From the IMG/VR virus record IMGVR_UViG_2718218398_000008: a DNA stretch of 44,826 bases. The stretch is one strand, 5' to 3'. Of this stretch, positions 398 to 6,235 are shown one piece after another. The position numbers and the translations under genes are program-made. The DNA is from a virus. Taxonomy: Duplodnaviria; Heunggongvirae; Uroviricota; Caudoviricetes. Position 1 is the first letter of the stretch; each line of letters starts with the position of its first letter. The notes below the pieces were generated by a model. It did not search any database and was not told the DNA's origin. It saw only the letters and a program-made list of their open reading frames with translations.

Positions 398-676
398 TCA
401 GCTCCATTCCCGAAGCGGTGTTTCCAGCTCCACGACATAATCAGAGAATACAGAAACATCAAACAAGTCATCAAGAATGCGAATGTTGACAAAATAACCG
501 TCATTCCGGACACAGACAGGTTCTCCCTCTTCTGTTACCCCTGTTTCTGTGTAGGTGAAACCAATTTCATCGACTAACAGTTTATTCTGGAGGTCTTCAT
601 CCTCCTCCCAGTCAAGAGATGACAGGAAGGATTTAAACTCTCTGTTACCAGGAAATTTCAAAGTTAAATCTTTCAT
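398..676 (-). CDS. hypothetical strongly acidic protein (92 aa), start overlaps stop of upstream tail fibre gene
   Basis: ORF track; Asp/Glu-rich composition; start/stop overlap (673..676) with stf-like gene suggests translational coupling; sits where lambda tfa would be but does not resemble Tfa. Confidence 0.4.
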   Translation of the reverse strand: MKDLTLKFPGNREFKSFLSSLDWEEDEDLQNKLLVDEIGFTYTETGVTEEGEPVCVRNDGYFVNIRILDDLFDVSVFSDYVVELETPLREWS

Positions 677-2700
677 ACTGCCTCCTTGATTTGCCTGTCA
701 TTTAATTCTTTAAACCAGACTCTGAAATTTCTGATGTGTCCAAACAAATGACGCGTTCCTGCTGCGGTCTGCCCACCAAACCGGTACGATGTTGCTGTAA
801 CTCCAAATATTTTACCATTAAGGTTTGTTGTATAATTACCATTGCATATTGCATTTACTGATAAATCAGATTTAGCTCTCACACCCACAATGAACCTTTC
901 TCCATCTGAGGCAATTTGTGGCTGAACCATTCCTACGTTGGCGCTTATCTTTCCTGTTGCAACAAACCCCAGCGATAAATAATTATCATCAATACTGTGC
1001 CCTCCAACATCAAATATCCTTGGCGCAACATTGGGCGGTGTACTCCAGTTCCTGCTTACTTCGCACAATACCGTAAAAGGCCGTGTTGACAGGTTATTCT
1101 GCGATGGGATAGTAACTACATCACTTGCGCGTGTTGTTGGCATTGTAGTTACAATAAATGACGATGCCGTATTGCCCAGTTCAATTTGCGGCGTCGTCAT
1201 GGTTAATGTTGAGTCATCATAGAATGTCTCATTACTTATTTTATTTGTCATATAAAAAGCACAGTTAACGGTATCAATGTCCGTATTAGCTGTATAAGTG
1301 GCCTCATAGTAGGTCCACTCGCCCTGTTGTTCAGCTTTGGCTGTTATAAGGGATGTATTACCGCTTACTGTTGCGATCCGGGTATCCAGATCAAGATAAG
1401 AGTCAGCAGAGAAGGTATCTGTTCCACCAATAATAACTGAAACTCTTAACCTGCATCGTGCTTTAGCGCCTTTAACCCGGCACGAAAAAGTGAAACATTC
1501 ACCACTTGCCAGCGGGAATCTGTCTGCTGCAACCACACCATGCACAGTATAGCCACCTGTTGTTCCCACTATACTTTCCGTGGGTGTCACCGTGGCATAA
1601 TTGAACCCCTGTTTATCAGTGCCAAATGTTTTATTCAGTGCGGAATGAACAGTCCATGAGTCTGGTTTATTTGAGTTCCTCAGATAATTTGTCCTCTGTC
1701 CTTCAATCAATAAGCCATCGCGCTCAAATCGCGGTTCGTCAACTTCAGCAAGCTTGAGTTGGCCGGACTTATTAATATACGTTGCTGTTGAAGCACGTTT
1801 AAACTTAACAATCTTGTCGCCTGGCATTGTTATTTCATCGTCACCAATAACTATCTTTTTATAAGATGGCGAAAAACCCGTAATCATATCCAGTGAATCG
1901 TTAAACGGTATCCACACATCAGGCAGCGGCGGCACTATATTCGCACAGGGCTCTGCAGTCACTTCCGCTGCGGCTTCTGCGCGGTCTGCCGCCTTTTCAG
2001 CTCGTGTCGCTGCCGACAGAGCCTCATCCTTTTTCTGCCCGGCCTTTGTTGCGTCTGCTGCGGCCTCCCGCGCTTTTGTGGTGGCGACTCCGGCATTTTC
2101 AGCGGCTGACTCTGCATTACGGCGGGAAGCCTCTTCACTGTCTGCGGAGGCTTCTTCTGACGCACGGGCATTTGTCTCTGAACGTTCTGCCGCTGTTGCT
2201 GCGTTTTGTGCGGCTGTTTTTGAAGAAGCTGCCGCTTTCGCGCTGTTACCTGCATTCGTCTCTGATGTTTTCGCCGCGTTCCTGGACGATGCCGCTGCTG
2301 TTTCTGATTTCTTTGCTGCCGCTGCGCTCTGAGAGGCGGCTTCAGCGTTGCGTGCCGCCTCTTCCACCATCTTTTCAAAACGATACAGTGCCTCCGGACA
2401 AACATCATCTTCTGTTGCAGCGCCCAGAAAATCATTCAATGTCCCCGGCTTAGAATCCTCATACACGGTGATGGTCCCGGCATGTGAAGGCGGAAAACCT
2501 TCAACCAGCAGGGCGACGCTGTACTGGCCATACTCAACATCCATGCTGTAACGTCCGGCTTCATCCGGATTTTCTGAGGCCACCGTGTTCACCACAACTG
2601 TGGTGCTGTTACGTTTTGCTTTGAGCTGAATGGTGCAGTTCTGTATCGGTTTTCCTGCACCGTCTTTCAGCACACCTGAAATCTGTACTGCCATATTCAC
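673..2700 (-). CDS. stf: side tail fibre protein (Stf-like): lambda-type N-terminus, Ala/Ser-rich low-complexity shaft, non-lambda C-terminal domain
   Basis: N-terminus MAVQISGVLKDGAGKPIQNCTIQLKAKRNSTTVVVNTV... matches lambda Stf N-terminal domain; Ala/Ser/Glu-rich repeats; C-terminal ~400 aa beta-rich and unlike lambda. Confidence 0.75.
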   Translation of the reverse strand: MNMAVQISGVLKDGAGKPIQNCTIQLKAKRNSTTVVVNTVASENPDEAGRYSMDVEYGQYSVALLVEGFPPSHAGTITVYEDSKPGTLNDFLGAATEDDVCPEALYRFEKMVEEAARNAEAASQSAAAAKKSETAAASSRNAAKTSETNAGNSAKAAASSKTAAQNAATAAERSETNARASEEASADSEEASRRNAESAAENAGVATTKAREAAADATKAGQKKDEALSAATRAEKAADRAEAAAEVTAEPCANIVPPLPDVWIPFNDSLDMITGFSPSYKKIVIGDDEITMPGDKIVKFKRASTATYINKSGQLKLAEVDEPRFERDGLLIEGQRTNYLRNSNKPDSWTVHSALNKTFGTDKQGFNYATVTPTESIVGTTGGYTVHGVVAADRFPLASGECFTFSCRVKGAKARCRLRVSVIIGGTDTFSADSYLDLDTRIATVSGNTSLITAKAEQQGEWTYYEATYTANTDIDTVNCAFYMTNKISNETFYDDSTLTMTTPQIELGNTASSFIVTTMPTTRASDVVTIPSQNNLSTRPFTVLCEVSRNWSTPPNVAPRIFDVGGHSIDDNYLSLGFVATGKISANVGMVQPQIASDGERFIVGVRAKSDLSVNAICNGNYTTNLNGKIFGVTATSYRFGGQTAAGTRHLFGHIRNFRVWFKELNDRQIKEAV

Positions 2701-2752
2701 TCCACAAATAAAAAAGGCACCATTTCTGGTGCCCGAATTTGGGTTTTAAAAT

Positions 2753-5700
2753 TCAACTGATACTGATGCCGGCTGTTGATTTCTTCATCACGACAACAAG
2801 AAGGTCGCTGATACTGGTCGTTGGCGTCCAGTTATTTGCACCATATGAAGAAACATTGAAAGTCAGGGTGACATGGCCGTGTCCGGCAGGCATATCAATG
2901 ACTGATGAAAATACCCTGCTGACATCCGTCGCGGGTTGCTGAAAGATTTCCTGTCCGTTCTTCAGCACCTGCAGCTTACAGGTTGAATACCAGTATGACT
3001 GTTGGTTGTTGCTGTTGAAGTTTTCATGCTTACCACCGCGAAACAGAACGGGGGGGACGACTATCTGACGGTCAAAAGCCTGGTCATCGTACACAGTGAC
3101 CGTTATTGTACCGCTGGCATAACTGCCATTTCTCGGAAAGGCTTTTCCCACCGTTTTGACAATATCACCTTCAATCTGGTTAGCTGACAGTTTTCCCAGA
3201 ATCCGACAGTTCTGGTTAATCGTGACATTATTGAGCGTCCCGGAGTTCGCATTCACGTTACCGCTGATATCCGCATTTCTCGCAGAAAGTCGACCATCAG
3301 GTGTCAGTGAAAACGTTGGGGGATTGCCACCGCTGGTAATGGTGGGAGCCGTCAGATATTTCAGGAACACTTCGTTCATGAATATCTGATCGCCCTGCCC
3401 AACAAACATCGGCTTTGTATTGCCATTCGCAGGATTAATCATCGCAATCCTGTCCGCCGCCAGCAGCACCTGACTCTGCATACCGTCAGGGGTATTCTCA
3501 ATACCGGCACCAATACCCGCGATATAAAGGCGTCCGTCCTGCATCTGCTGCAGCTTCACAGCCCACATGCTGTTCAGGTTATTATTTGTATCAACCTGAA
3601 CCTTCTGTATCTGCTGGATCGCTGCACTCTGGTCTTCCAGTTTCTTATTGACGGTCTGCGTGATTTCATTGCTGACATCCGTAATGGACGTCCTGATTTC
3701 AGCCAGGTCAGGCGCAAGCTGACCGTTATCAATCTGCGTCCACAACTCCTGAGCCAGATGGGTTTTCCCTATCTCTCCTTTGAAAAAATCCAGATAGCCG
3801 GATGCATCATCACTCGGCTGGCCAACAGCCTCCACAAATGCCGATTTGCCAACGGTGTTCACACTGCGAATGTAAAAATAATAATCATGGCCCGGTTTGA
3901 TATTGATACTGGCGGCTATCCAGTACAGCGCCGTACCAAGATAACGCGCGCTGGCTTCAACCTGCCTGATATCCGCAATCCGCTTTTCCGAGAACCAGAA
4001 CTCAAACTGTACCGTCGGATCATAAACGGCAAGATGCGGCGTTGCGGTTATCTGAAAATAGCCCGGCGTCAGCTCAATCCGCGATGGCGCTGCCGGTGCG
4101 GCAATCCGGAACGATACCGACGCCGGATCCCCCTGCTGCCCCCACGCATTTACCGCCCGGACTGTCAGCCTGTAGTTCCCCAGCGCCAGTTGCCTGAAGC
4201 GGTATGTGGTTTCCGTCGTCCTGGCCGTGCTGACCAGCCGCTCACTGCCGTCATCCGCTGCCACGGTCAGGCGAAGCATAAAGCTCACCCCCTTCACCAC
4301 CTTCGGTGTGTCCCATCGCGCCAGCACCTGATATTCCCCGCTGTCTGCGGTGACTTCTGCGGTCAGGTGCTGCACCGCGGGCGGCGTGACACCATTCACC
4401 GTGCCACTCTGTTCGCCGTCAAAGTGCGCCCCGTTATCCACGATGGTCTCTTTTTCCGGCACATGCTGCACGGCGGTGATGGCATACGTGCCGTCGTCGT
4501 TTTCACGGATACTCACGCAGCGGAACAGTCGCTGGCGCAGCGTCGGCAGCTTCAGCCCCCATACGCTGTATTCAGCAACACCGTCAGGAACACGGCTCAC
4601 TTTCACCTTCACGCCGTCGGTGACGGACTGAACCTCCACGCTGACCGGATTGCCACTTCCGTCAACCAGGCTTATCAGCGTGGTACCGGAGGATGGCAGC
4701 GTGATTTCACGGTCGAGCGTCAGCGTCCGGGTCTGGCTGTTCACCGCCAGCACACGACCACCGGTGCTGATACCGGCATAGTCATCATCGCAGATTTCAA
4801 TGACATCCCCCGGTACATGGCGAAGCCCTTCAGCACCCACGCTGAAGTCCACGGTCTGCGTTTCCAGCAGCTCCGTTTTAATCAGCCACAGCCCGGCGCG
4901 GTGTGCCTGCCCCCGGCTGGTACAGCCAAAGGCATCCATCTTCGTGACGTTACGGCCGTAACGGGCAATGGCCTGCGTATCCTCCACGAGCTCTGTCGCC
5001 GTCTCCCAGCCGTTATCCGGGTCAATCCAGTTCACCTCAACGGCATTATGGCGGTCCTTCAGGGCGCTGAAGCTGTAGCGGAACGGCGCGCCATCATCCG
5101 GCATCACCACATTACTGCGGTTATAGGTCCACACCTTATCTGATGGTCGGTCCTGCACGAACGTCAGCGTCTGCCCGTTCCATACCGGCATACAGCGCAT
5201 CGCCGAGCAGAAATCACTGAGCACATCCCACGCCTTGCGCTGTGTGGTCAGGTACGCATTACAGGTAATGCGCGGCTCCGTGCCGCCAAAGCCGTCCGGC
5301 ACCGACTGGTCGCAGTACTGGCCGATGACATACAGCGCCCATTTATCCACATCCGCCGCACCAAGACGTTTCCCCATGCCGTAGCGCGGATGGGTCAGCA
5401 TATCCCACAGACACCAGGCCATGTTGTTGCTGTATGCCGGTTTTAACGTTCCGTCCCAGATACCGCTGTATTGCCGCGTCTGCGGGTTATAGTTCGACGG
5501 CACCTGCAGAATGCGCCCGCGAAGATGATAATTACGGCTCACCTGCTGGCTGCCGAACTGCTCCGAGTCCACCTGCACGCCAACCAGTGCCGTGTTCGGG
5601 TAGCACTGTTTCACATCGATGATTTCGGTGTATGACGACCAGAGCGTTTTGTTCAGCAGCTGGTCTGTGGTGCTGTCCGGCGTCATCCTGCGCATCCGGA

Positions 5701-6235
5701 TATTAAACGGGCGCGGCGGCAGGTTATCCACCACCACCGAGGCCAGATACTGCGAGGTGGTTTTGCCCTTAATGGTGATGTCTTTTTCCGTCACCCAGCC
5801 ACCGTTACGCTGTATCTGAACCAGCAGGCGAACTTCCGACGGATTCCTGTCTCCCTTTGAGGTGGTTTCCACCAGTGCCTGTACACCGAAGGTAAAGCGC
5901 AGACGGTCGATGTTTGCCGACGTGATGGTCCGGGTGATCGGCGTGTCATATTTCACTTCCGTACCCAGCACCGTCTCGGAGCCGGAGGATTCAAATCCCT
6001 CCGGCGGTGACTGCTCCTGCTCACCGGCCCGGAACACCACCGTGACGCCGGATATATTGGTATTCCCCTCACTGTCCAGCACCGGCGTACTGTTCAGCAG
6101 CACGCTTTTTAATCCATCCACCGGACCTTCAACCGGCCCTTCGCTGATGGCATCGATCACACTCAGCAGCTGCGTGGACTTCAGGTTGTCCTTCGCTTCG
6201 CGCGGGGTATGCCCCTTACTGCTGCCTTTACCCAT
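2753..6235 (-). CDS. J: tail tip / host specificity protein J (1160 aa), C-terminal receptor-binding region diverged from lambda
   Basis: Length and position after I; conserved lambda J motifs through most of the protein; last ~150 aa differ from the lambda LamB-binding domain. Confidence 0.95.

Follow-up and report, generated by a model that had tools for sequence, protein, structure and literature searches.

The window analysed here, a stretch of 44,826 nucleotides from a virus of the class Caudoviricetes, represents, in reverse complement, a lambdoid prophage similar to PhiR47_2 and runs from just beyond stf to int. It is colinear with PhiR47_2 (PV340567) throughout, at 96–99.5% identity over most of its length, and the lambda-like tail gene set is complete and colinear with the annotated tail genes of that phage. 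Among these genes, J forms a single intact open reading frame of 1160 codons plus stop, 28 residues longer than the J protein of lambda (J02459; 1132 residues). By BLASTP the two proteins are 83% identical overall, an identity that is very unevenly distributed along their length. Positions 2753–3250, singled out in a preliminary description of the sequence as a receptor-binding end unlike that of lambda, are the 3' end of this reading frame and encode residues 996–1160.

Table 1. Features of the window, with positions counted from its first nucleotide; ~ marks approximate limits.
Feature	Position	Strand	Evidence
stf, side tail fibre; likely start ATG at 2694	673..2700	-	Pfam phage_tail_N, 225 bits
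Terminator-like hairpin and T run, between J and stf	2715..2734	-	Nearly identical element annotated as terminator in phage 21
Gene J, tail tip/central tail fibre protein	2753..6235	-	Open reading frame and translation; 99.9% nucleotide identity to PhiR47_2 J
Lambda-like proximal part of J, aa 1-805: hub domains, FNIII-A, two Ig/FNIII domains	3821..6235	-	Pfam; identity to lambda
Phage 21-type distal module of J, aa 806-1160: alpha-helical shaft, central straight fibre, receptor-binding domain	2756..3820	-	Identity; G+C
28-aa insertion relative to lambda, aa ~836-866, alpha-helical shaft	3638..3730 (~)	-	Alignment gaps
Central straight fibre (beta-prism), aa 872-1000	3236..3622	-	PF09327 Phage_Tail_Tip, 108 bits
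Ig-like receptor-binding domain, aa 1027-1160	2756..3157	-	PF12421 Ig_GpJ_C, 129 bits
Codons I1025 and V1026, fibre/receptor-binding domain junction	3158..3163	-	Residues present at phage 21 numbering
Codon E1071 (GAA)	3023..3025	-	Translation; laboratory phage 21 has E1071K (G18903A)
IS66-family insertion sequence, three ORFs	28549..30965	+	HTH_Tnp_1, TnpB_IS66, DDE_Tnp_IS66
Intimin/invasin-type inverse autotransporter, 1421 aa	31310..35575	-	IAT_beta, 338 bits; Big_1/Invasin_D3 repeats

The domain order of J is that of a lambda-type gpJ. Seven Pfam families are common to the window J, lambda J and the J of phage 434, and they lie at matching positions. The N-terminal hub and the FNIII/Ig domains that follow it were recognised by Phage-tail_3 (148 bits), FNIII-A_GpJ (139 bits), Ig_J (144 bits) and Ig_J_second (133 bits), in positions unchanged from lambda J, and the central fibre followed by a C-terminal Ig-like receptor-binding domain (RBD) was recognised by PF09327, PF12421 and an AlphaFold2 model. 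Between J and stf the window lacks the lom gene of lambda and 434, and the interval 2701..2752 holds only the hairpin; the order J, terminator, stf, again without lom, is also that of phage 21. The proximal part of stf is 93% identical in nucleotides to phage 21 stf, and its distal part, especially ~785..1684, gave no blastn match to phage 21; a weak match to the carbohydrate-binding module CBM_4_9, below the cut-off, was seen in this distal part.

Elsewhere in the window, other differences from PhiR47_2 were observed. The inverse autotransporter looks like a virulence-type cargo gene and lies in the early-right region, where PhiR47_2 has other genes, and the IS66-family insertion sequence is absent from PhiR47_2. 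Around ~39214..39226 the window is without a 1.37-kb segment of the kil region-cI interval that is annotated in PhiR47_2 as GevT toxin and GevA antitoxin, the flanks of the absent segment abutting with a 13-bp overlap. Across the whole window, neither tRNA genes nor Rfam families passing the gathering threshold were found; the genome announcement of phage 21 lists two tRNA genes in that phage.

A codon-level profile against lambda J located the divergence. Residues 1–805 are 97.8% identical to lambda in amino acids and 96.6% in nucleotides, whereas residues 806–1160 are 56% and 63% identical. Mismatches are sparse until nucleotide ~2400 of the gene and dense after it (residues ~800–806, window ~3820–3835), the step from 96.6% to 63% taking only a few tens of bases, and at the same point G+C drops from 0.59 upstream to 0.49 in the distal module. 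Taken relative to lambda, these sequence features support a sharp, apparently recombination-type breakpoint at residues ~800–806. J had been described as lambda-like over most of its 1160 residues, which the profile bears out, and as differing from lambda in the last ~150 of them. The C-terminal end does differ (51% amino acid identity over residues 996–1160, and 47% over the RBD, residues 1027–1160), but the divergent tract is really ~355 residues long. Within this tract lies a better conserved island, residues ~946–1005, which is 80–87% identical to lambda and reaches from the lower part of the central fibre to where the RBD region begins.

The length difference had likewise been noted correctly, at ~28 residues, but had been placed in the receptor-binding end. 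All 28 extra residues come from one insertion in the alpha-helical shaft, which corresponds to lambda residues 809–861 (PMC11101478), and this insertion lies outside positions 2753–3250. If this insertion is helical, we estimate that it would add ~4 nm to the shaft. The RBD itself carries three small indels relative to lambda (-4, +5 and -1) that sum to zero; they map to lambda residues ~1012, ~1048 (1048–49) and ~1107 and coincide with natural indel hotspots listed for J by Maddamsetti et al., who found that the "specificity region" of J circulates as an independent module (PMC6646904). The J of phage 434 retains the lambda shaft and fibre and diverges in the RBD alone, from about residue 1000, so exchange points within J vary.

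In a megablast comparison with phage records, 168 of them matched over at least 80% of the gene, most closely PhiR47_2 J (XSB42920.1; 3 nucleotide differences in 3483), followed by gut lambdoid isolates at 97–98% and phage 21 at 96.6%. The J protein of phage 21 (OL657228, UMO75436.1) also has 1160 residues, of which 1139 are identical to the window's without gaps, and all 21 substitutions lie at or before residue 986. Over the distal module, residues 806–1160, the two are 98.9% identical in amino acids (346 of 350 aligned, no gaps) and 98.4% in nucleotides, and phage 21 has the same 28-residue shaft insertion; both the insertion and this near-identity mark the distal module of the window as phage 21-type. 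The last 174 residues (987–1160), including the entire RBD (134 of 134), are the same in both proteins. Across these residues the codons differ at 12 synonymous and 0 non-synonymous positions, which indicates that the exact protein sequence is maintained by purifying selection. The mosaic replacement proposed in the preliminary description is therefore upheld, with its joint at residues ~800–806 and a distal part that is 98.9% phage 21 against 56% lambda. Phage 21 is in places further from the window in proximal J than lambda is. As a separate observation, proximal J is a fine-scale mosaic of lambda-closer and phage 21-closer segments: residues 466–630 are 98–100% identical in nucleotides to lambda and 89–94% to phage 21, and over residues 631–675 phage 21 is the closer of the two.

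Two other accounts of the altered end were weighed against module exchange, and we consider both very improbable. One is ordinary point-mutation drift in the lambda J lineage without any exchange, an account that suits ends which are homologous throughout and share their domain order with lambda. It is already refuted by the step itself, where nucleotide identity and G+C change together at nucleotide ~2400 of the gene, and it does not sit with the near-identity of the distal part to phage 21 in nucleotides, with the independent exchange points seen in 434 J or with the documented circulation of the J specificity region as a module of its own (PMC6646904). The other is that J is a decaying remnant of a defective prophage and its altered end has no function. 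In its favour are the IS66-family insertion of the window and its departures from PhiR47_2 in the early region. Against it, the frame of 1160 codons is intact, the lambda-like tail genes are all in place, the distal 174 codons differ from phage 21 only synonymously, and PhiR47_2, a viable phage whose recorded host is E. coli C, carries a J only 3 nucleotides different. The reading of J as a pseudogene was ruled out by the intact frame and the synonymous-only differences. Exchange of a distal module thus remains our reading of the joint, in a gene that is intact.

The distal allele is very common. The 498 bp at positions 2753–3250 matched 2538 of 5426 complete E. coli genomes, with 468 records at 99% identity or above and 614 at 95–99%. 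The last 498 bp of lambda J (4407–4904 of the lambda stretch) matched 98 of the 5426, always at 99% or above, and the carriers among the matches listed were laboratory strains such as DE3 lysogens. On these counts it is the textbook lambda allele that is unusual in nature. Alleles matched in the protein database graded from 99% to ~60% identity, and all were annotated as J/DUF1983/DUF3672 fragments.

The RBD of the window is clearly homologous to that of lambda and has the same fold, diverged rather than foreign. PF12421, the family of the C-terminal RBD, was matched far above its cut-off of 26.2 bits in the window J and at 88.8 bits in 434 J (OL657227), which shares the architecture and has its RBD in the same family. 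Searching the PDB by sequence with the distal 355 residues returned the gpJ713 protein of A8 (9wca/9wcb; 9.1e-150) and lambda gpJ (8xcj/8xck, 8iyk; ~1e-100). An AlphaFold2 model of residues 1010–1160 was all-beta, with a mean pLDDT of 81 and a pTM of 0.76, and Foldseek matched it to A8 gpJ (9wca/9wcb) with a TM score of 0.84–0.85 at 81% identity and to lambda gpJ (8xcj/8xck) with 0.78–0.79 at 46% identity; the remaining matches had TM scores below 0.45. A non-homologous replacement of the RBD was ruled out by these Pfam and fold matches to lambda. Structure prediction of the C-terminal domain, one of two checks that the preliminary description had proposed, thus returned the gpJ RBD fold (TM 0.85 to A8, 0.78 to lambda). 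The other, pairwise alignment, gave the stepwise divergence from lambda described above and RBD identities of 47% to lambda, 45% to 434, 81% to A8 and 134 of 134 residues to phage 21.

Three relatives frame the question of the receptor. Lambda gpJ (J02459; PDB 8XCJ/8XCK/8IYK), whose receptor is LamB, has the same seven-domain architecture and RBD fold as the window J, without the 28-residue shaft insertion and with different RBD loop indels. A8 gpJ, whose receptor is OmpC (PDB 9WCA/9WCB; Brodel et al. 2024), is an engineered chimera that is lambda sequence proximal to residue 992 and from window residue 992 onward is 82% identical to the window without indels; a recipient with lamB deleted was used for its selection, and its structure, the closest solved one to the window RBD, has OmpC bound. 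The window RBD differs from that of A8 at 26 of 134 residues, and at 81% identity it is not itself an A8-type RBD; RBDs identical to A8 are present in other natural E. coli proteins. The receptor of phage 434 is OmpC.

Phage 21 is the closest relative with receptor data. Spotted on a lamB deletion strain, the ancestor gave no lysis, and use of OmpC and then OmpF was seen only after J mutations arose (Borin et al., bioRxiv 10.1101/2023.04.13.536812). In Table 1 of Gerbino et al. the ancestor is LamB-only; they found that I1025T alone adds OmpC use, with I1025 and V1026 lying at the fibre/RBD junction (PMC11336670); both residues and their numbering agree with the window J. As GenBank phage 21 and the window share an identical RBD, the receptor with the best support is LamB. 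It is thus quite probably the receptor of the window J, the same one that lambda uses, and the window prophage would be expected to behave as phage 21 does in receptor use; another porin in this role is improbable. The suggestion that the divergent end implies a different outer-membrane receptor is for this reason not sustained, as the RBD is the very one of a phage whose native receptor is LamB. Lambda and phage 21 RBDs are 47% identical and both use LamB, and those of A8 and phage 21 are 81% identical and use OmpC and LamB, so that divergence is a poor predictor of the receptor. The gain of OmpC by the single substitution I1025T shows in turn that receptor specificity is labile in this J family. 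If there is a host-range difference from phage 21, it would more likely lie in the distal part of stf than in J.

One complication concerns the strain in which LamB dependence was seen. Compared with GenBank, the laboratory phage 21 carries G18903A in J (Borin et al.), which translates to E1071K, inside the RBD; the window and GenBank phage 21 both have E1071, and among 96 natural homologues this position was E or Q, never K. It could thus be argued that the receptor of a 21-type RBD with E1071 is not LamB, with OmpC the most plausible candidate, and that the LamB dependence of the laboratory strain reflects its substitution to a residue that none of the natural homologues examined has. The OmpC-bound A8 RBD, at 81% identity and selected on a lamB deletion recipient, points the same way, as does the acquisition of OmpC by the single mutant I1025T. 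We nevertheless regard this account as unlikely: the RBD one residue away is strictly LamB-dependent and reached OmpC only by further mutation, for the same authors the native receptor of wild-type phage 21 is LamB, and A8 differs at 26 of the 134 RBD positions. In the literature searched, the Meyer-lab papers were the only ones on the phage 21 receptor, and no independent account of the E1071 form was found. The phage 21 genome announcement is silent on the receptor, PMC12315714 does not mention the PhiR phages or their receptors, and a 2026 receptor-prediction preprint covers Drexlerviridae GpJ, with the lambda and 21 types absent.

LamB as the receptor does not imply docking as in lambda. 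The loops of the window RBD that are most unlike lambda's are those expected to touch the receptor, and the details of LamB docking need not match lambda's; in the lambda structures the gpJ loops are named L1–L4, without residue numbers in the text (PMC11101478). There is a slight chance that the natural E1071 form does not depend on LamB as the laboratory E1071K form does, or that it docks through loops unlike lambda's. If so, the pair of phage 21 and A8, 26 substitutions apart and with LamB and OmpC as their respective receptors, would offer a natural system in which to map a switch of porin receptor.

The route from docking to tail opening may be drawn by homology with lambda, whose gpJ-LamB structures are the source of the mechanism of tail-tip opening (PMC11101478). 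In the window J, as in lambda, the RBD loops of a J trimer would enter the porin trimer, after which the base of the RBD would widen and spread. Through new hydrogen bonds the straight fibre would then become more compact and twisted, the helical shaft would flip back, and the FNIII strings would part and so open the tail tip.

In sum, the window J is an intact lambdoid tail-tip protein composed of a lambda-like part (residues 1–805) and the distal allele of phage 21, and LamB is its probable receptor. The mosaic joint is real, but the importance of the finding for discovery is small: the phage 21-type allele is already known, having been sequenced, modelled and experimentally evolved, it is very common in E. 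coli, and modular exchange in J is documented. For annotation the lesson is that the receptor of a gpJ protein is not predicted by how far its sequence diverges from lambda.
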